A stretch of 64,000 bases of DNA from sequence record MK327943.1; one strand, written 5' to 3'. The notes under the pieces were generated by a model. That model was not told the DNA's origin. It worked only from the letters and a program-made list of their open reading frames with translations, and searched no databases. Of this stretch, positions 45,706-55,970 are shown in pieces; position 1 is the stretch's first letter, and each line of letters begins with the position of its first letter. This DNA comes from Escherichia phage vB_EcoM_G53. Both the position numbers and the translations under genes were made by a program.

Positions 45706-45713
45706 TATAAATA
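45706..45713 (+). promoter_or_regulatory. Late promoter TATAAATA (gene 34)
   Basis: Exact motif upstream of gene 34. Confidence 0.55.
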
Positions 45714-45743: not shown

Positions 45744-48700
45744 ATGGCCGACATCAAACGTAAGTTCAGAGCCGAAGACGGTCTGGACGCCGGTGGCGAC
45801 AAGATTGTTAACGTAGCATTAGCCGACCGTACAGTAGGTACTGATGGCGTAAACGTTGACTTCCTGGTACAAGAAAACACCGTTCAAGTATATGATTCTA
45901 CGCGTGGATATAACAAAGGATTTGTTGTTCTTTATGACAACCGTTTATATCAAGCAATAAATGATATTGTGTCTCCTTCCGGGGCATTTAACCTTTTACA
46001 ATGGCGTGCAGTTCGTACTGATGCACAATGGATAACTGTCGCTTCTGGGACTTATCAACTTTCTTCAGGTGAATCGATTTCGGTTAACACTGGTGCTGGC
46101 AATGATATGGTTTTCACGTTGCCAAATGCGCCGGTTGATGGTGATACTGTTGTTTTGGCTGATATTGGTGGAAGAACCGGGACAGTTAAAGTACAGATTA
46201 ACGCGTCTGTGCAGAGTATTTTAAACTTTAGAGGTGAACAAGTTCGTACAGTTTTAATGACGCGTCCGCGTTCACAACTATTGTTTGTGTTTAGTAATCG
46301 TTTGTGGCAGATGTATATTACCGATTATGGTAAAGAATCAATCACTGTTACACCTGCGTCACCATATCAAGCACAAGCAAATGATTTTATCGTTCGTCGT
46401 TTTACTAGTGCAGCACCAATCAACATTACACTTCCACGTAATGCTAATAATGGTGATATAATCCACATAGTTGATTTAGATAAATTAAACCCACTGTATC
46501 ATACAATTGTTAAAACATTTGATGATACAACGTCTATTGGTGAAGTCGGGACTCATATTGCCGAAGGCAGAAATGACTCTGACGCGTTTTTTGTTTTTGA
46601 TGCTGCAAGTAGTTTATGGCGTATATGGGAAGGCGACCAGAAATCGCGTCTTCGTATTATCCGTGCGGATTCAAATATTCGTCCAAATGAAGAAGTTCTT
46701 ATTTTTGGCACAAATAACGCTACAGCCGGAACTATTAATCTTACGCTGCCTACAGGAATTTTGAGTGGTGACACTGTTAAAATTTCAATGAACTACATGC
46801 GTAAAGGCCAAACAGTAAAAATTAAAGCTGCCGAAGGTGATACAATTGCTTCTTCTGTTGCATTGCTTCAGTTCCCTAAACGTTCTGAATATCCACCTGA
46901 TGCTCAATGGGTCTCTGTTACTGAACTAGAATTCAATGGCACTACTTCATATGTTCCTGTATTAGAATTAGCGTATATCGAAGACACTGTTGCTGGTACA
47001 AGTTATTGGGTTGTTCAACAAAACGTCCCAACTGTAGAACGTGTCGATGCTGGAACTGATACAACTAGAGCTCGTGTAGGTGTTATTGCTCTTGCTACTC
47101 AAGCGCAAGCAAATGTTGATTTAGAGAATACTCCAGCTAAAGAATTGGCTATTACTCCCGAAACGTTGGCAAATCGTACAGCAACTGAAGCTCGACGTGG
47201 TATCGCTAAAATTGCTACAACAGCACAAGTTAACCAGAATTCCACAGCATCATTTTTGGACGATACTATTGTTACGCCTAAAAAACTAAATGAGCGTACA
47301 GCAACTGAAACTCGTCGCGGTCTTGCTGAAATTGCTACTCAGGCCGAAACCGATGCTGGTCTTGATGACACAACGATTATTACACCTAAGAAATTGCAGG
47401 CACGTCAGGGCTCTGAAACACTATCTGGCATAGTTAAATATGTATCAACTACTTCTGCTACTCCTGCTGAAACTCGTGGGGCCGCAGGCACTAACGTTTA
47501 TAATAAAACCGTAAATAATTTAACTATTTCTCCTAAAGCCCTTGACCAATATAAAGCAACTTATGCTCAACAAGGTGCAGTAATTTTAGCTGTTGATAGT
47601 GAAGTAATTGCTGGACAATCTCAAGCAGGTTATTCTCACGCTGTAGTAACTCCTGAAACACTACATAAGAAAACTTCTACTGATGGACGTATTGGTTTAA
47701 TTGAAATTGCTACGCAAGCAGAAACTAATGCTGGGACTGATTATACACGTGCAGTAACGCCTAAGACGTTAAATGATAGGAGAGCGACGGAAGGATTATC
47801 CGGCATAGCCGAACTTGCTACGCAAGTTGAATTTGATACTGGAACTGACGATACTCGTATCTCAACTCCACTGAAAATTAAAACTCATTTTGATTCTTCT
47901 GACCGTACCAGTGTTAATTCTGATTCTGGACTTATTGAAGAAGGAACCTTGTGGAACCATTATACTCTTGATATTTCTAAAGCAAATGAAACACAACGTG
48001 GTACACTTCGCGTAGCGACTCAGGCAGAATCTAATGCAGGAACTTTAGATGATGTTCTTATTACTCCTAAAAAGCTTTTAGGGACTAAGTCCACTGAAAC
48101 GTCTGAAGGCGTAATTAAGGTTGCTACTCAGGCTGAAACTATAACAGGAACTTCTGCTAATACTGCTGTATCTCCTAAGAATTTAAAATGGATTGTCCAG
48201 AATGAACCAACATGGGCTGCTACTACAGCAATTCGTGGATTTGTTAAAACTTCATCTGGTTCAATTACATTCGTTGGTAATGATACAGTTGGTTCAACAC
48301 AACCTTTAGAATCATATGAAAAAAATAGCTATGCTATATCTCCATATGAATTAAACCGTGTATTAGCAAATTATTTGCCATTGAAAGCTAAAGCCGTAGA
48401 TAGTAATTTATTAGATGGACTAGATTCATCTCAGTTCATTCGTAGGGACATTGCACAGACGGTTAATGGTTCACTAACCTTAACCCAACAAACGAATCTG
48501 AGTGCCCCTCTTGTATCATCTAGTACTGCTACGTTTGGTGGTTCAGTTTCGGCAAATAGTACATTAACTATTTCTAACTCTGGAACAGCTACTCGTCTGA
48601 TTTTTGAAAAAGGACCTCAAACTGGAACTAACCAAGCACAGACGATGACTATCAGAGTTTGGGGAAATGAATTTGGCGATGGTTCAGATACAACACGTTC

Positions 48701-49619
48701 TACTGTATTTGAAGTTGGCGATGAAACATCTAATCACTTTTATTCTCAACGTAATAAAGCCGGGAATATAACGTTTAGTATCAATGGTACTGTGATGCCA
48801 ATAAATGTTAACGCTTCAGGCACGTTAAATGCGAATGGCGTTGCAACATTTGGTCGTTCAGTTACAGCCAATGGCGAATTCATTAGCAAGTCTGCAAATG
48901 CTTTCAGAGCAATTAGTGGTGATTACGGATTCTTTATTCGCAATGATGGCGGCAGCACATATTTTATGCTTACTGCATCTGGTGATCAGACCGGTGGATT
49001 TAATGGATTACGTCCATTATCAATTAATAATCAATCCGGTCAAGTTACGATTGGTGAAAGCTTAATCATTGCCAAAGATGTTACTATAAATTCAGGCGGT
49101 TTAACTGTTAACTCGAGAATTCGTTCTCAGGGTAGTAAAACATCTGATTTATATACCCGTGCACCAACATCTGATACCGTAGGATTCTGGTCAATCGATA
49201 TTAACGATTCAGCCACTTATAACCAGTTCCCAGGTTATTTTAAAATGGTTGAAAAAACTAATGAAGTGACTGGGCTTCCATACTTAGAACGTGGCGAAGA
49301 AGTTAAATCTCCTGGTACATTGACTCAGTTTGGTAACACACTTGATTCACTTTACCAAGATTGGATTACTTATCCAACAACTCCAGAAGCACGTACAACC
49401 CGTTGGACTCGTACATGGCAGAAAACTAAAAATTCTTGGTCAAGTTTTGTTCAAGTATTTGATGGGGGTAACCCTCCTCAGCCATCTGATATTGGTGCTT
49501 TACCTTCTGATAATGCAACAATCGGAAACTTGACAATAAGGGATTTCTTAAGGATTGGTAACGTCCGCATTATTCCAGACCCTGTGAATAAATCTGTTAA
49601 ATTCGAGTGGATTGAATAA
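45744..49619 (+). CDS. 34: Long tail fibre proximal subunit gp34
   Basis: 1291 aa (T4 1289); late promoter upstream; synteny 34-35-36-37. Confidence 0.93.
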   Translation: MADIKRKFRAEDGLDAGGDKIVNVALADRTVGTDGVNVDFLVQENTVQVYDSTRGYNKGFVVLYDNRLYQAINDIVSPSGAFNLLQWRAVRTDAQWITVASGTYQLSSGESISVNTGAGNDMVFTLPNAPVDGDTVVLADIGGRTGTVKVQINASVQSILNFRGEQVRTVLMTRPRSQLLFVFSNRLWQMYITDYGKESITVTPASPYQAQANDFIVRRFTSAAPINITLPRNANNGDIIHIVDLDKLNPLYHTIVKTFDDTTSIGEVGTHIAEGRNDSDAFFVFDAASSLWRIWEGDQKSRLRIIRADSNIRPNEEVLIFGTNNATAGTINLTLPTGILSGDTVKISMNYMRKGQTVKIKAAEGDTIASSVALLQFPKRSEYPPDAQWVSVTELEFNGTTSYVPVLELAYIEDTVAGTSYWVVQQNVPTVERVDAGTDTTRARVGVIALATQAQANVDLENTPAKELAITPETLANRTATEARRGIAKIATTAQVNQNSTASFLDDTIVTPKKLNERTATETRRGLAEIATQAETDAGLDDTTIITPKKLQARQGSETLSGIVKYVSTTSATPAETRGAAGTNVYNKTVNNLTISPKALDQYKATYAQQGAVILAVDSEVIAGQSQAGYSHAVVTPETLHKKTSTDGRIGLIEIATQAETNAGTDYTRAVTPKTLNDRRATEGLSGIAELATQVEFDTGTDDTRISTPLKIKTHFDSSDRTSVNSDSGLIEEGTLWNHYTLDISKANETQRGTLRVATQAESNAGTLDDVLITPKKLLGTKSTETSEGVIKVATQAETITGTSANTAVSPKNLKWIVQNEPTWAATTAIRGFVKTSSGSITFVGNDTVGSTQPLESYEKNSYAISPYELNRVLANYLPLKAKAVDSNLLDGLDSSQFIRRDIAQTVNGSLTLTQQTNLSAPLVSSSTATFGGSVSANSTLTISNSGTATRLIFEKGPQTGTNQAQTMTIRVWGNEFGDGSDTTRSTVFEVGDETSNHFYSQRNKAGNITFSINGTVMPINVNASGTLNANGVATFGRSVTANGEFISKSANAFRAISGDYGFFIRNDGGSTYFMLTASGDQTGGFNGLRPLSINNQSGQVTIGESLIIAKDVTINSGGLTVNSRIRSQGSKTSDLYTRAPTSDTVGFWSIDINDSATYNQFPGYFKMVEKTNEVTGLPYLERGEEVKSPGTLTQFGNTLDSLYQDWITYPTTPEARTTRWTRTWQKTKNSWSSFVQVFDGGNPPQPSDIGALPSDNATIGNLTIRDFLRIGNVRIIPDPVNKSVKFEWIE

Positions 49620-49627
49620 GAGGTATT

Positions 49628-50755
49628 ATGGAAAAATTTATGGCTAAGTTTGGACAAGGATACGTCCAAACGCCATTTTTATCGGAAAGCAATTCAGTAC
49701 GATTTAAATTAAGCATAGCGGGCTCTTGTCCGCTATCAACATCTCCTGCTTATATTAAGTTTCAAGATAATCCACTTGGGTCCCAGGTTTTTTCCGTTGG
49801 ATTAAACGTTCGTGTAATAAATCCTACAACAGGTGCAGTAGTTGAATCTAAGACATATAATTTCTCTACTGAAAACGACGCCACGTCAAGTGCATTTGTT
49901 ACTTTCATGGACACATATGCTTCAAATTTTATATTTGCTCTTGTTACTAACGCTAAAACAAACTTTCCACCTGAAGTTCTTGCATGGTTTACTAAAGCTG
50001 GGAGTTCTGCTATTCCATTAGCTCAACAAGTTTTAAATATAGTGGACATTTCTTATTCAGCATTTTATATTTCTGGTAAGAATGCTATAGCACTAGAACA
50101 TATTAAGTATAGTAATAAGAAAACTTCATCCGACTATAGTACACCACTTGATGTTGTGTACGACACTATCGATGATATTGGTGCTACCGGCTTCCCTAGT
50201 CGTACGTATGAATCGTCAGACACATTTTTATCTGCTGTTGGAGGTACTAATAATGAAATTAAAAGGATGCCTACAACATCCCTTATTACACCTCTCGCTG
50301 GGTATAAATTGAAGCCTGGAGATTTCCTTTATATGAAATTCCAACTAATGGCCAATGCTGATTTGTTAGCACAAGGGACGGCACGACTTTCTATTCGTTT
50401 CTTTAAATCTCCTTCTACTTCACCTATTTCATTTAAGGATATAAACTTTGATGGGGGCGCAGGTGAATGGAAGATATATGAAGACTACATAGAAATTCCT
50501 GCTGGTGCTGACGGGTTCACGATTTATTGTTATCGTACAGCTCCAGTCGGGCAAGGTGGATTAAGAAACGTTATATTCACTGAAGTATCATGTAATGGAA
50601 GCGTTTCAAAACCTGCTGAGTTTGGTATAAACGGTATTCGTGTAAATTATGTTTCAGAATCTTTAAGTGCTCCAGACATAATGACATTACCTACTCAATC
50701 TTCAACTGATACTGGTAAGGTATTTGGACAAGAATTTAAAGAAGCATCAGAATAA
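49628..50755 (+). CDS. 35: Long tail fibre hinge connector gp35
   Basis: 375 aa, synteny. Confidence 0.9.
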   Translation: MEKFMAKFGQGYVQTPFLSESNSVRFKLSIAGSCPLSTSPAYIKFQDNPLGSQVFSVGLNVRVINPTTGAVVESKTYNFSTENDATSSAFVTFMDTYASNFIFALVTNAKTNFPPEVLAWFTKAGSSAIPLAQQVLNIVDISYSAFYISGKNAIALEHIKYSNKKTSSDYSTPLDVVYDTIDDIGATGFPSRTYESSDTFLSAVGGTNNEIKRMPTTSLITPLAGYKLKPGDFLYMKFQLMANADLLAQGTARLSIRFFKSPSTSPISFKDINFDGGAGEWKIYEDYIEIPAGADGFTIYCYRTAPVGQGGLRNVIFTEVSCNGSVSKPAEFGINGIRVNYVSESLSAPDIMTLPTQSSTDTGKVFGQEFKEASE

Positions 50756-50760
50756 ATTTA

Positions 50761-50778
50761 GGGAGACTTCGGTCTCCC
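50761..50778 (+). terminator. Terminator hairpin after gene 35
   Basis: GGGAGAC-UUCG-GUCUCCC + AUUUUUG. Confidence 0.6.
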
Positions 50779-50785
50779 ATTTTTG

Positions 50786-50793
50786 TATAAATA
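50786..50793 (+). promoter_or_regulatory. Late promoter TATAAATA (gene 36)
   Basis: Exact motif upstream of gene 36, just after terminator hairpin. Confidence 0.55.
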
Positions 50794-50817: not shown

Positions 50818-51483
50818 ATGGCCGATTTAAAAGCTGGTAGTACAACTGGCGGTGCTGTTATATGGCATCAAGGTAATTTCCCTTTAATGCCAGCAGGTGA
50901 TGACGTCCTGTATAAAACGTTTAAACTCTATTCAGAATATAATAAACCACAAGCTGCTGATAACGATTTCGTTTCTAAAGCTAATGGTGGTACTTATGCA
51001 TCAAAGGTAACATTTAACGGTGGCGTTCAAGTTCCGTATGCTGTAAACAACACAAACCCATGCGGTGTTTATCCAGGTAACGGTGATAATGCTACTTTTG
51101 CTGTAGCAAATATCGATATTGTTTCGTGGAATGGTATTGGTTTTAAATCATCACAAGGTTCAGCAGCTCGAACTGTTGTAATTAATGCACGCAATGGTGA
51201 TATTAGTACAAAAGGCGTTGTATCTGCTTCAGGACAAGTAAGAAGCGATATGACTGCTCCGGTTGCAGCAAATGATCTCACAAGAAAAGATTATGTTGAT
51301 GGACGAATAAATATTGTTACGGATAACGCAAATTCCCGTGTATTGCGTAAAGGCGATACCATGACTGGTACTTTAACAGCACCAAACTTTTTCTCACAGA
51401 ATCCGGCGTCTGAGGCTAATCATGTTCCTCGTTTCGACCAGATTGTAATTAAAGATTCTGTTCAAGATTTCGGCTATTATTAA
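50818..51483 (+). CDS. 36: Long tail fibre distal connector gp36
   Basis: 221 aa as in T4, late promoter upstream. Confidence 0.9.
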
Positions 51484-51491
51484 GAGGACTT

Positions 51492-54400
51492 ATGGCTACA
51501 TTAAAACAGATACAATTTAAAAGAAGCAAAGTGGCAGGAGTTAATCCTACTGCAGCACAATTAGCCGAAGGCGAATTAGCGATAAACTTAAAAGACCGAA
51601 CTCTTTTTACTAAAGATGACCTCGGTAATATTATTAGCCTAGGCTTTGCTAAGGGCGGGCAAGTTGACGGCAACGTTACTATTAACGGACTTTTGAGATT
51701 AAATGGCGATTATGTACAAACAGGCGGAATGACTGTAAACGGACCTATTGGTTCTACTGATGGCGTAACTGCAAAAGTTTTCAGATCTACACAGGGTTCA
51801 TTTTATACAAGAGCAACAAACGATACTGCAAATGCCCATCTTTGGTTTGAAAATACAAATGGCTCAGAACGTGGTGTTTTATATTCAAAACCGCAGTCTG
51901 AAAATGAAGGCGTAATTACAATGCGTGTTCGTCAAGGAACCGCTGCGGGAGCTCAAAATTCAGAATTTCATTTCATTTCTACCGATGGCGGTATCTTCCA
52001 GGCACGCAAATTAACTGCTTTAACTTCTATTAGTACACCAACTATTAGTGTTAATTTAATTAATCATGATTCTAAATCATTTGGACAATACGATTCGCAG
52101 TCATTAGTTCAATATGTTTATCCTGGAACCGGTGAAACAAACGGAATCAATTACCTTCGTAAAGTTCGAGCTAAATCAGGCGGAACCATTTACCATGAAA
52201 TCGCTTCTTCGCAAACCGGAAAAAGTGATGAAATTTCTTGGTGGACTGGAAATACAGCCGTTAATAAACAAATGGGTCTTCGTAATGATGGGTCTTTAGT
52301 ATTACGACGCTCGCTCGCAATTGGTACAATTACAACAGATGAAAACATTAATAACTACGGCTCCGCTGGAGCAATGGGCGAATGTTATATAGTTATCGGT
52401 GATGCATCAACAGGTTTATCATACAAAAAAACTGGAGTATATGATTTAGTTGCTAGTGGTCTTTCTTTAGCATCTATTACTCCTGATAGTTTCCGTAGTA
52501 CCCGTAAAGCGATTTTTGGGCGCTCAGAAGACCAAGGTACAACATGGATTATGCCTGGAACGAACGCTGCATTTTTATCGGTTCAAACACAGGCTGATGA
52601 AAACACTGCTGGAGACGGTCAAACCCATATTGGATATAATTCTGGCGGAAAAATGAACCACTATTTCCGTGGTAAAGGCAAAACTAATATTAATACTCAG
52701 GAAGGTATGGAAGTTAATCCGGGTATTTTGAAATTGGTAACTGGCTCTAATAATGTAATGTTTTATGCTGATGGCGGTATTACATCTGTTAAGCAGCTTT
52801 CAATATATAATGGCATATATTTAGCAGCTAATAATTCTACTGCTGGGCTAACATTCGCTCCAACTACTACAATTGATGGCACTAAGCAAATTTTGTGGGA
52901 AGGCGGTACTCGTGCTGGTCAGAATAAAAGCTATGTAACTGTTAAAGCATGGGGTAATTCATTTAACGCATCCGGCGATCGTAATCGTGAAACTGTATTT
53001 GAAGTTAGTGACGGGCAAGGATATTATTTTTATTCACAGCGTGTGGCTCCAAGTGGCTCTGAAACTACTGGGCCTGTTGTAACCCAGTTCAATGGACAAG
53101 TTAATGCTAGAGGAAGTATTATTACTGACGGAAGTCTTAGAGTTAACGGATTAAGTACATTATCCGGACAAGTTACTATGGATAACGGGCTTGTTTTATC
53201 CGGCGGTGGTTCTATTACCGGTCAAGTTAAAATCGGTAATACCGCAGATGCTTTCCGTATTTACAATGCTGAATATGGAGCTATTTTCCGTCGTTCTGAA
53301 GCGTCTTTGCATATTATACCTACACTTAAAGATGCAGGTGAAAGTGGTGGTATTTCTAACCTTCGCCCATTGAGTGTTTCTCTTAACAACGGTATGGTTC
53401 AAATGCGCCATTCTGTTACGTTAGGTGATGATGGTGCTGGCGGTAATATGGTGACCGTTGATAATGATAATAAACTTGTTGTTATAACTAGTCATAGTCG
53501 CATTTCTCCTAATTACCGTATGCAATTAGGACAATCGGCATATATCGACGCTGAATGTACTGATACTGCACGACCTGCTGGAGCCGGTTCTTTTGCTTCA
53601 CAAAATAATGAAAACGTTCGTGCTCCGTTCTATATGAATATTGATAGAACAGATACAAGCACTTATGTTCCTATTGTGAAACAAAGATACGTTCAAAATA
53701 ATAGTTGTTATTCTATTGGTACTTTAATTAATGGTGGTAACTTTAGAGTTCATTATCACGAAGGTGGTGACGGCGTTTCTACTGGTGCTATTATAAAGGA
53801 TCTTGGATGGGAATTTAATAAAAACGGTGATTTTTATTCTCCTGGTAAATTAGGCGCTGGTAATGTTCGTATTGGTACTGATGGTAATATCACCGGTGGT
53901 TCTGGCAACTTTGCTAACTTGAATACCACAATAAATAACCTTAAGACGGATATTGTCTCAAGTTATCCTATTGGTGCTCCGATTCCTTGGCCTACTGATA
54001 CACCTCCTGAAGGTTATGCCATAATGGAAGGTCAAACATTTGATGCTGGCTTGTATCCTAAGTTAGCTGCGGTGTATCCTTCCGGCGCTCTGCCTGATAT
54101 GCGCGGTCAAACTATCAAGGGTAAACCATCTGGGCGTGCTGTATTAAGTACAGAAGCAGATGGTGTTAAGTCACATAGCCATAGTGCAAGTGCATCAAGC
54201 ACAGATTTGGGTACTAAAAACACATCAAGTTTTGATTATGGTAGCAAAACGACTTCAAGCTTTGATTATGGTACTAAGACCAGTAATACCACTGGTAACC
54301 ATAACCATACAGTGAGTGGTAATACTAGTTCCGCAGGAGCTCACCAACACGCGCGTTCAGGTCCTCAGGTCACTGCTGCATGGGCAGACGATTTGTTTAG

Positions 54401-54719
54401 AGACGGGGTTACTACGATAGGTGCAAACTCATATGCTAAAATTAACTCAGGTATCACTGGTTCGACTTTAGCAACTAAGGTCGGTAAAACATCAAATGAC
54501 GGTGCCCACACCCATAGTTGGTCAGGAACTACTAGCTCTACGGGTAACCATGCTCATACGGTAGGTATTGGTGCTCATACCCATTCGGTAGGTATTGGTG
54601 CTCATTCTCATACTGTTGCAATTGGTTCCCATGGACATACAATAACTGTAAATGCCACAGGAAATACAGAAAACACAGTTAAAAACGTTGCTTTTAACTA
54701 TATCGTTCGTTTAGCATAA
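51492..54719 (+). CDS. 37: Long tail fibre distal subunit gp37 (receptor-binding) with His-x-His boxes
   Basis: 1075 aa; C-terminal repeated GxHxH motifs (NHNHT, AHTHS, AHSHT, SHGHT); followed by T4-type gp38. Confidence 0.93.
54180..54640. repeat. Short tandem repeats in gp37 tip-coding region
   Basis: Repeated acttcaagYtttgattatggta units and gtaggtattggtgctcat units. Confidence 0.7.
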
Positions 54720-54724
54720 GGAGA

Positions 54725-54739
54725 AGGGGCTTCGGTCCC
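54725..54739 (+). terminator. Hairpin after gene 37
   Basis: GGGGC-UUCG-GUCCC + UUUUU. Confidence 0.5.
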
Positions 54740-54749
54740 TTTTTATAAT

Positions 54750-55301
54750 ATGAAACTCTATCACTATTATTTTGACACTAAAGAATTTTACAAAGAAGAA
54801 AATTATAAACCATTAAAAGGCGTAGGATTTCCGGCTCATTCGACACCAAAAAAACCTTTAGACCCTAAAGAAGGCTATGCTGTTATATTTGACGAACGCG
54901 AGCAAGAATGGGTATATGTTGAAGACCATCGAGGAAAAACAGTATGGACTTATGATAAGCAAAAAATTGTTATTGACACTCCAGGTGCTCTTCAAAATGT
55001 TACTACAGAAGAACCTGGCGAATTTGACATTTGGACTGACGACGGGTGGAAGGAAGATGAAGCGTATAAGCGGGTAGTTCAACGTGATAAGAAAATTCAT
55101 GAACTCTATAAATTATTCAGTGTTTTAAGTTCTCTTATTGATGCAGAGGTTGCTAATAGAGAAGAAAAACGAAAATTTAAAGAGCTCAAAAAATTCTTTG
55201 CCCTTTTAGAAAAACATGAACATCTTGGCGGCGAATTCCCTAAATTCCCTGACCTTGAAAGCAAATCACTTGTTAAACGAATTATAAATATCTTTAAGTA
55301 A
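54750..55301 (+). CDS. 38: gp38 tail-fibre assembly chaperone (T4 type)
   Basis: 183 aa; close match to recalled T4 gp38 (MK.YHYYFDTKEFYKEENYKP...). Confidence 0.9.
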   Translation: MKLYHYYFDTKEFYKEENYKPLKGVGFPAHSTPKKPLDPKEGYAVIFDEREQEWVYVEDHRGKTVWTYDKQKIVIDTPGALQNVTTEEPGEFDIWTDDGWKEDEAYKRVVQRDKKIHELYKLFSVLSSLIDAEVANREEKRKFKELKKFFALLEKHEHLGGEFPKFPDLESKSLVKRIINIFK

Positions 55302-55310
55302 GGAGGTATT

Positions 55311-55970
55311 ATGGCAACACCAAAAGTGTCATTTTCGCCTAGTGATATTCTATTTGGGTTGCTAGATCGTATTTTCAAAGATAACGCTACTGGAAAGGTT
55401 TTAATGTCCCGAGTAGCGGTAATTATTCTTTTGTTCCTAATGGCACTAATATGGTACAAAGGAAGTATTTTGCTGGATTATTATGTAAGATCTAAGTATG
55501 ATACTTATACTGAAATAATCCAAAAAGAACGAGCTTTACGTTTTGAATCTGCGGCTCTAGAACAACTGCAAATAGTTCATATCTCATCTGGTGCAGATTT
55601 TAGTGCTGTGTATTCTTTCAGACCTAAAAACTTAAATTATTTCGTCGACCTTATAGCTTATGAAGGCAAACTGCCTAGCACAATTTCTGAAAAGTCCCTT
55701 GGCGGATTTCCAGTGGACAAAACGGCCAATGAATATATAATTCATTTAAGTGGCCGTCATTTCTCGTCTAAATCAGAATTTGCATTTTTGCCTACAAAAT
55801 CTAAGACTGCCGAACTTTCTTATATGTATAGTTGTCCATACTTTAATTTGGATAACATCTATGCTGGAACTGTGACGATGTATTGGTATAAGGGGAATAA
55901 TATACTTGAGGAAGATCGCTTAGCGGCTATATGCAACCAAGCGGTCCGAATACTAGGAAGGGCTAAATAA
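55311..55970 (+). CDS. t: Holin T
   Basis: 219 aa; strong match to recalled T4 holin incl. single TM segment. Confidence 0.95.
   Translation: MATPKVSFSPSDILFGLLDRIFKDNATGKVLMSRVAVIILLFLMALIWYKGSILLDYYVRSKYDTYTEIIQKERALRFESAALEQLQIVHISSGADFSAVYSFRPKNLNYFVDLIAYEGKLPSTISEKSLGGFPVDKTANEYIIHLSGRHFSSKSEFAFLPTKSKTAELSYMYSCPYFNLDNIYAGTVTMYWYKGNNILEEDRLAAICNQAVRILGRAK

Follow-up and report, generated by a model that had tools for sequence, protein, structure and literature searches.

[quoted passage not shown] In T2, T6 and S16, by contrast, gp38 is an adhesin, a protein unrelated to T4-type gp38 that has glycine-rich motifs and stays on the virion (PMC6851490, PMC3157838). The fibre family of lambda Stf and of prophages has also been described (PMC9659904).

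We analysed a window of 64 000 nucleotides from Escherichia phage vB_EcoM_G53 (MK327943.1), on which all positions below are given. The region at its fibre locus very probably encodes the receptor-binding gp37 needle of a Mosigvirus (an RB69-like T-even phage) together with its dedicated gp38 chaperone, the needle being a long-stem form with fixed, coupled repeat arrays.

The fibre locus and the gp37 tip

The open reading frames and Pfam matches of the window gave the fibre operon order gp34-35-36-37-38-t (Table 1), on a backbone 98% identical to the Mosigvirus phages F31, APCEc01 and JK36. A late transcript of g36-g37-g38 probably begins at the TATAAATA box that follows a terminator-like hairpin upstream of gene 36, its promoter role being deduced from the T4 late-promoter consensus. 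Between gp37 and holin t lies the gp38 gene, which begins 31 nt past the stop codon of gp37. A motif match also placed a second TATAAATA box at 55283-55290, within the 3' end of g38, and two minus-strand open reading frames over gp38 (54858-55100 and 55106-55459) lie wholly within well-supported plus-strand genes.

Table 1. Features of the distal fibre locus, with positions on the window and residues of gp37
Feature	Position	Strand	gp37 residues (T4 equivalent)	Basis
Terminator-like hairpin GGGAGAC-TTCG-GTCTCCC + T5	50761-50784	+		read from sequence
Putative T4 late-promoter box TATAAATA, 5' of gene 36, after hairpin	50786-50793	+		motif match
gp36, small distal half-fibre subunit, joins gp37 N-terminus	50818..51483	+		221-aa ORF; Pfam Phage_T4_gp36, E = 2.5e-38
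gp37, long tail fibre distal subunit, 1075 aa	51492..54719	+		ORF
Knob/collar domain D10, N-terminal part	53958..54170	+	823-893 (811-881)	Pfam Collar; 2XGF alignment
Outgoing (ascending) stem strand of needle D11, 60 aa	54171..54350	+	894-953 (882-931, 50 aa)	alignments; PMC9603124
Three 30-nt / 10-aa units (T4 two)	54195..54284	+		repeat search, Tandem Repeats Finder
HxH sites 1-3, outgoing strand	54174-54182; 54300-54308; 54342-54350	+	H895/H897; H937/H939; H951/H953	
Head ('tip') subdomain, predicted to contact the receptor, ~46 aa	54351..54488	+	954-999 (932-959, 28 aa)	alignments
Returning (descending) stem strand of D11, 59 aa	54489..54665	+	1000-1058 (960-1009, 50 aa)	alignments; PMC9603124
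HxH sites 4-8, returning strand	54507-54515; 54549-54557; 54576-54584; 54603-54611; 54630-54638	+	1006; 1020; 1029; 1038; 1047	
Three 27-nt / 9-aa units, then HGH (T4 two units)	54549..54638	+		repeat search, Tandem Repeats Finder
C-terminal strand back into knob	54666..54716	+	1059-1075 (1010-1026)	2XGF alignment
gp38, T4-type tail fibre assembly chaperone, 183 aa	54750..55301	+		T4 gp38 homology, Pfam, phrog_105
Holin t, end marker of fibre operon	55311..55970	+		Pfam Phage_holin_T, E = 1.8e-92

The first-pass annotation had placed a gp37 tip and a gp38 at 53900-55301, a span that does cover the tip (aa ~804-1075) and the entire gp38, and the length it gave for gp37, longer than the 1026 aa of T4, also holds. 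Over its whole length gp37 was 67% identical to T4 gp37 and 84% identical to that of LH01, the last ~870 aa being nearly identical to the latter. Sliding identity showed directly that window positions 51640-51900 are 94-95% T4-like and cannot be aligned to LH01, while 52870-54720 are 93-100% LH01-like; in the nucleotide search no record covered the whole gp37 gene at >95% identity. Judged by these sequence comparisons, gp37 is a mosaic of segments with different relationships.

A T4-type tip, as had been proposed, was borne out by a phmmer search against the PDB, in which gp37 aa 798-1075 matched chain A of 2XGF (residues 2-242, E = 1.9e-87), and by a Pfam Collar domain preceding the needle (PF07484, aa 828-875, E = 3.7e-11, 43.3 bits against a cutoff of 24). 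Domain and stem limits were transferred from T4 (PMC9603124), with an offset of +12 for D10. The order of collar/knob, outgoing stem, head, returning stem and C-terminal strand is that of 2XGF. Collar and C-terminus are almost the same as in T4, the columns of the C-terminal strand are invariant or nearly so across 91 homologues, and each of the seven T4 HxH sites has a conserved counterpart at the aligned position. The tip is nevertheless not a copy of the T4 tip, as alignment showed one further unit in each array (SSFDYG, 10 aa, in the outgoing strand; VGIGAHxH, 9 aa, in the returning one). Its head, too, is a different one, ~18 aa longer than the 28-aa T4 head and without clear similarity to it. 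By homology with the solved structure, the tip would be an intertwined homotrimer with axial iron, in which three gp37 chains leave the globular knob, extend as an intertwined stem, form a small distal head and return to the knob. An AlphaFold2 monomer of aa 798-1075, built from an alignment of 91 sequences, gave a pLDDT of 52 and a pTM of 0.21 with almost no secondary structure, scores too low for the model to be of use, as is to be expected of a single chain whose fold exists only as the intertwined trimer.

HxH boxes and paired repeat arrays of the shaft

Eight HxH boxes were found in the gp37 tip, three on the outgoing and five on the returning strand. Seven had been listed in the first-pass annotation, and all are present (NHNHT, AHQHA, AHTHS, NHAHT, AHTHS, AHSHT and SHGHT, at aa 937, 951, 1006, 1020, 1029, 1038 and 1047); the remaining one, KSHSHS at aa 895, was absent from that list and corresponds to the first T4 site. 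Their spacing is 42,14,55,14,9,9,9 against 32,14,37,14,9,9 in T4, and the HxH histidines at tip-alignment positions 98/100, 140/142, 209/211, 223/225, 241/243 and 250/252 were invariant in the 91 homologues. Each box, contributed by three chains together, would coordinate a single iron ion along the axis of the fibre. Because the outer stem has three plus three units where T4 has two plus two, eight axial iron sites are predicted against the seven of T4, in a shaft one layer, or roughly 2-3 nm, longer; the extra eighth site, which falls on the returning strand, and the register of the strands are deduced from the spacing of the boxes.

The repeated 20-aa and 25-aa peptide units reported earlier are present in this C-terminal region, and the tandem DNA repeats that encode them are real and in frame. 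Tandem Repeats Finder detected a 30-nt period at 54217-54273 (1.9 copies, 89% matches, score 91) and a 27-nt period at 54549-54613 (2.4 copies, 84% matches, score 102), and the repeat search extended both to three units per array, at 30-nt spacing over 54195-54284 and 27-nt spacing over 54549-54629. The units read SSxD[LY]GxKxT (10 aa) on the outgoing and HxHxV[GA]IG[AS] (9 aa) on the returning strand. Adjacent units are 63-80% identical in DNA in the outgoing array (unit 2 against unit 3, 24/30 nt) and 67-89% in the returning array (unit 1 against unit 2, 24/27 nt), where units 1-2 contain a 20-nt exact direct repeat, CGGTAGGTATTGGTGCTCAT, 27 nt apart. Chance or low complexity was rejected as the source of the repeats, since none of 200 codon-shuffled versions of the gene reached, even in its best value, the 24/27 identity of adjacent units.

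The numbers of outgoing and returning units matched across 237 homologues, at 2/2 (T4), 3/3 (the window) or, in a few of them, 4/4, with one ambiguous case and no mismatch. In the same set, the first HxH gap followed the number of terminal 9-aa steps (32 with 2, 41/42 with 3 and 52 with 4), and the inner 14...14 layer occurred on both strands or on neither. A slip in a single array is thus evidently not tolerated. The state of the arrays changed an inferred ~30 times or more (at least 30) on a tree built from flanking sequence, a short and recombining scaffold on which the figure depends. Physical linkage within one ~500-nt cassette, instead of selection, could lie behind part of this coupling. 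We put forward tentatively, as something possible but short of probable, that the needle shaft is built of quantised layers, each consisting of one outgoing 10-aa and one returning 9-aa HxH unit, so that its length evolves only in paired steps. The papers accessible to us contained no explicit statement of such a rule; if true and unreported, it would serve as a design rule when fibres of altered length are engineered, and would make it possible to test whether the length of the shaft is tied to how far the fibre reaches through the LPS or O-antigen layer.

The repeats had also been read as a substrate for slippage-driven change of host range, and here the earlier interpretation was not upheld. 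It would make the two arrays contingency-type substrates in which slippage or unequal recombination often alters unit number and hence host range. That the repeats are genuine and in frame agrees with this, as does the variation of unit number across the wider family (2, 3 or 4), and the 20-nt direct repeat offers homology enough for a stretch to be deleted or duplicated now and then. To go by its title, a paper by Tetart et al. [quoted passage not shown] There is thus a laboratory precedent for the idea, though neither the locus of the window nor its relatives support it. No unit-number polymorphism was found among the full-length aligned matches listed (77-98% nucleotide identity), every one of which aligned 840 nt to 840 nt without indels, and all relatives that were fetched and translated had 3 + 3 units. 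Instead of many near-identical units, as slippage-prone arrays have, just 2-3 units were detected per array (three by the repeat search), with adjacent units 63-89% identical in DNA, an imperfect identity from which the duplications must be old. The repeats, moreover, encode the putative iron-binding shaft and not the predicted receptor-contacting head, which is where close relatives chiefly differ, and with unequal counts in none of the 237 homologues, selection appears to act against a single slip.

Nor is the apparent expansion relative to T4 a recent one. The layout with eight HxH boxes is common to TuIb, Bas44, F31, GiZh and SP18, and lambda Stf also has eight; about 150 phage records cover at least 80% of the tip of the window as against 32 for the short T4 tip, and 21 of those 32 are at least 99% identical to T4. 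The long-stem tip class is the majority, old state and T4 the rarer short form, an atypical reference, and being longer than T4 is thus no evidence of expansion. Frequent slippage at this locus is, in sum, quite improbable, and the repeats look fixed rather than switchable. They would instead be the genetic footprint of a layered shaft, old, fixed and structurally coupled; to take them for host-range switches would be to overlook that they are structural layers of an iron-stapled shaft whose strands have to be kept in register.

gp38, the head and the receptor

At 183 aa, gp38 has the same length as T4 gp38, to which it was 68% identical over 179 aa without gaps (E = 6e-93). It matched phrog_105, 'tail fiber assembly' (E = 6.4e-49), and its sole Pfam match was Caudo_TAP, at 23.3 bits just above the cutoff of 22.1. 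It could be asked whether gp38 is instead an adhesin as in T2, T6 and S16, capping the gp37 tip and setting host range, since gene 38 holds the same position in both fibre types and an old database record for TuIb names a 'receptor-recognizing protein 38'. Against this stand the full-length identity to the T4 chaperone and the phrog_105 match, while no Pfam match to the T2/S16-type adhesin family, which is marked by glycine-rich motifs with hypervariable loops, and no glycine runs or glycine-rich motifs were found in gp38, which is without similarity to those adhesins. T2-type gp37, furthermore, lacks the T4-type needle and head, both of which are complete in the gp37 of the window. Finally, gp38 is 97% identical to Gp255 of phage fD1, a protein that was not detected in virions by mass spectrometry, in contrast to Gp251-254, which were (PMC8309999). 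An adhesin role is hence extremely improbable, and the earlier assignment of gp38 to the T4-type chaperones, and not to the T2-type adhesins, stands.

Together with the host-independent chaperone gp57A, encoded elsewhere, the gp38 chaperone would fold and trimerise the tip and would not be built into the virion. As gp38 is an assembly chaperone and not an adhesin, the gp37 tip is the expected receptor binder, as had been anticipated, and published work on Mosigvirus phages with the same gene pair agrees (PMC10844046, PMC8594841). Within the tip, receptor choice would be made by the head between the stem strands. Compared with F31, which has the closest backbone, sliding identity was 91-99% in the collar, fell to its lowest (46-67%) in the head and returned to 86-99% in the C-terminus and gp38. 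An 89-aa head query was 100% identical in ATK47/48, FP43, SA35RD and Aplg8 and 98.9% identical in SHSML-52-1, and the group of heads following the fully identical set was only 60-68% identical. The head thus looks like a swapped cassette in which the diversity between relatives sits, and may be exchanged between phages by recombination within the conserved stems. In engineering of this fibre family, the head should be exchanged between conserved stems and stem units altered only in pairs.

By class, the primary receptor is likely to be OmpC, with a possible contribution from LPS. The Mosigvirus phages AV117 and AV118, which have the same gene pair, need OmpC (PMC10844046), and in a screen of 255 phages the OmpC specificity of all 17 OmpC-specific Straboviridae was analysed via gp37 C-terminal domains, whereas Gp38 adhesins were the assignment for phages that use other porins. 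That the primary receptor is not OmpC but, for example, OmpF or the LPS core alone is unlikely in view of these findings, though by a smaller measure than the alternatives discussed above. The head of the window is only about 60-68% identical to heads with a reported receptor class (JS09/AV113-type, TuIb and Bas44), the AV117/AV113/JS09-type heads being only about 65% identical to it, and the literature on ATK47, Aplg8, FP43, SA79RD, SHSML-52-1, KAW3E185, phage 55, PNJ-6, LH01 and Mizar yielded no receptor determination for the exact head allele. TuIa, with a T4-type gp37, is reported to use OmpF (Montag et al. 1990), so that membership of the class is no guarantee of OmpC. AV116 and AV122, also with a T4-type gp37, have been proposed to be LPS-dependent (PMC10844046). 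OmpC thus remains the preferred assignment, and the phage groups with those T-even phages that bear the adhesin on gp37 itself and are most often OmpC users, a grouping that aids receptor prediction and the choice of cocktail partners and has little import beyond annotation.

Comparison with known fibre tips

The tip is not new, as its longer form is common and already in databases. It is about 99% identical to that of LH01, with about 5 differences in the last 280 aa, and the tip DNA of LH01, SHSML-52-1, ATK47/48, Aplg8, FP43 and SA35RD/SA79RD aligns with that of the window over 840 nt, free of indels, at 95.5-97.7% identity; in contrast, the N-terminal third of the gp37s of the LH01 group differs from that of the window. 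TuIb (X55191) and AdolfPortmann (Bas44) share the identical layout of HxH boxes and the same length of 207 aa from DMRG to the end, with a T4-type gp38 downstream as in the window; their heads, however, are only about 64% identical to that of the window, and both are Tequatrovirus phages while the phage of the window is a Mosigvirus. Related E. coli prophage fibres comprise hundreds of homologues at 55-65% identity. In lambda Stf (orf-314) the same collar and iron-needle module, with eight HxH boxes (42,14,48,14,9,9,9), is likewise followed by an assembly protein, of the Tfa family, but the heads are different and the module sits on an unrelated and much shorter fibre shaft, in prophages of siphovirus or myovirus type.

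The fibre operon and the gp37 tip

The window comes from a T-even Mosigvirus phage and is 98% identical over its first 20 kb to F31, APCEc01 and JK36; the gp37/gp38 tip region forms the end of the long-tail-fibre operon. The gene assignments of the first-pass annotation, with gp38 as a chaperone and not an adhesin, were borne out: gp38 aligned without gaps to T4 gp38 (68% identity) and matched Tfa-type assembly families, and the family searches returned no adhesin-family match for it. It is 97% identical to its homologue in phage fD1, which mass spectrometry found absent from fD1 virions, the four fibre proteins being present (PMC8309999). Together with gp57A, gp38 would assist gp37 trimerisation and would then be released.

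Genes of the fibre operon (window nucleotides) and domains of the gp37 tip (residues)
Feature	Position	Size	T4	Remark
gp34	45744-49619
gp35	49628-50755
Stem-loop GGGAGAC-TTCG-GTCTCCC and T5 run, then late-promoter box TATAAATA	50761-50793			between genes 35 and 36, just upstream of 36
gp36	50818-51483
gp37	51492-54719	1075 aa	1026 aa
gp38	54750-55301	183 aa
Holin t	55311-55970
Knob, N-terminal part	aa 823-893	71 aa	71
Outgoing stem	aa 894-953	60 aa	50
Head	aa 954-999	46 aa	28
Returning stem	aa 1000-1058	59 aa	50
Knob strand, C-terminal	aa 1059-1075	17 aa	17

Further TATAAATA boxes lie at 45706-45713, 38 nt ahead of gene 34, and at 55283-55290, within the 3'-terminal part of gene 38 and upstream of holin t; the window holds 14 such boxes against 7.4 expected. 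Over gp38 and the start of holin t run two minus-strand ORFs, 54858-55100 (80 aa) and 55106-55459 (117 aa, TTG start), which are probably spurious.

On alignment gp37 is 67% identical to that of T4. The gene has a mosaic make-up: positions 51640-51900 share 94-95% identity with T4 and are unalignable to LH01 or F31, both of which match the remainder, and 51900-52080 resembles none of LH01, F31 and T4 (34-45%). The region 51640-52080 corresponds to approximately residues 50-200. The best database match to the first 800 nt was phage LF82-41 (92%), and no database record matched the whole gene at >95% identity.

The sequence statements of the first-pass annotation (gp37 length, His boxes, repeats, gp38) were all correct; the seven His boxes were found in gp37, and an eighth, KSHSHS at residue 895, had been missed. 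Tandem Repeats Finder recovered the reported DNA repeats, with periods of 30 nt at 54217-54273 and 27 nt at 54549-54613. Each array holds three units, those of the returning strand being HAHTVGIGA, HTHSVGIGA and HSHTVAIGS, and shuffling the codons of the gene 200 times never gave adjacent units as similar as those observed.

The last 278 residues matched PDB 2XGF (E = 1.9e-87). The T4 chain runs through the knob (811-881), outgoing stem (882-931), head (932-959), return (960-1009) and knob again (1010-1026), limits that were transferred to the window tip (PMC9603124), and HxH boxes hold seven axial iron ions in the T4 needle (PMC6957217). A monomeric AlphaFold2 prediction of the tip could not be used (pLDDT 52). 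Compared with T4, the tip carries 37 additional residues as three separate insertions: 10 in the outgoing strand, 9 in the returning strand, which bear the eighth HxH, and 18 in the head, which has no recognisable similarity to the T4 head.

Pairing of outgoing and returning units

HxH spacing was analysed in 237 sequences drawn from the 120 best homologues of a 5.8-billion-protein search, eleven individual phage tips and the best 50%-identity-cluster representatives. The first gap always went with the number of terminal 9-aa steps (32 aa with two, 41 or 42 aa with three, 52 aa with four), and an inner layer (14...14; once 12...12) never occurred on one strand without the other. No mismatch between outgoing and returning units was found among the 237, one sequence (P0218; 69,9,9) being ambiguous. 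This sole misfit to the spacing classes could be explained by a 32 + 37 layout that has lost its second HxH box, which would leave the needle one metal site short. The rare homologues P0191, P0200, P0206 and P0234 have four outgoing and four returning units and no inner layer (52, head, 9,9,9,9), which would make their outer stem the longest observed.

A neighbour-joining tree built from the flanking collar and C-terminus, which are short, gave at least 30 state changes, a number inflated by recombination, and both strands changed together each time. Since phages appear to exchange the head that lies between the two arrays, one crossover there between parents with two and three units per strand would give a mismatch. 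None was seen, from which we infer that the two strands have to keep register, each layer consisting of a single outgoing unit packed against a single returning HxH unit. This strict, family-wide pairing is possibly the sole new point of the analysis.

Proposed slippage, probable head exchange and the likely receptor

It had been proposed that the tandem repeats serve as a slippage-driven host-range switch. A substrate exists, namely an exact 20-nt repeat in the returning array whose copies are spaced by 27 nt, and a 1996 paper, going by its title, reportedly described host-range expansion by duplications in the T4 adhesin. However, the full-length aligned relatives listed, some with as little as 77% nucleotide identity, all have the same unit number. 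In addition, the units have drifted apart in sequence, they are situated in the shaft and not in the head, and arrays with differing unit numbers were never seen. Thus the proposal is unsupported, and such a switch is very unlikely.

LH01, F31 and T4 were each aligned with the window over the gp36-t region. Relative to F31, whose backbone is closest, identity is 91-99% in the collar and 86-99% in the C-terminus and gp38, but only 46-67% in the head; by these identities the head looks like a cassette swapped by recombination in conserved stems. This pattern agrees with Tetart et al. 1998, said from its title to concern adhesin specificity swapped by recombination between conserved motifs. It also agrees with published accounts in which variation in these phages is focused in the head (PMC10844046; bioRxiv 10.64898/2026.04.02.716166).

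Carried at the distal end of the iron-stapled needle, the head would make the first, reversible cell contact, and by analogy with relatives its receptor is likely to be OmpC. OmpC is required by the Mosigviruses AV117 and AV118, both of which carry the window's gp37/gp38 gene pair (PMC10844046), and a 255-phage screen analysed 17 of 17 OmpC-specific Straboviridae via gp37 C-terminal domains (bioRxiv 10.64898/2026.04.02.716166), a grouping with which the BASEL paper agrees. The heads of the receptor-tested relatives share only about 65% identity with that of the window, and no receptor experiment on a phage with its exact head was found in the literature.

The tip among related fibres

The window tip is common and already known. 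Over its 840 nt, SHSML-52-1, LH01, FP43, KAW3E185, Mizar, phage 55, Aplg8, ATK47/48 and SA79RD/SA35RD match it at 95.5-97.7% identity with no indels; a head of 100% identity occurs in ATK47/48, FP43, SA35RD and Aplg8, and LH01 gp37 differs at about five of the last 280 residues. The layout of eight HxH boxes and three units per strand also occurs in TuIb (X55191), the BASEL phage Bas44, F31, SSE1, GiZh, SHBML-50-1, SP18 and lambda Stf (orf-314). Among phage records, 150 cover 80% or more of the window tip and only 32 the T4 tip; of the latter, 21 reach 99% identity or more with T4. With the three-unit layout so widespread, T4 is the short outlier, and a tip longer than that of T4 is not the expansion it was taken for but the usual form, which had been sequenced before. 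E. coli prophage fibres in the homologue search fell mostly into classes with seven or six HxH boxes. The C-terminal part of lambda Stf (orf-314; record positions 392-1336), unlike T4 with its seven boxes, has the same needle as the window, with eight HxH boxes and three units per strand (42,14,48,14,9,9,9).
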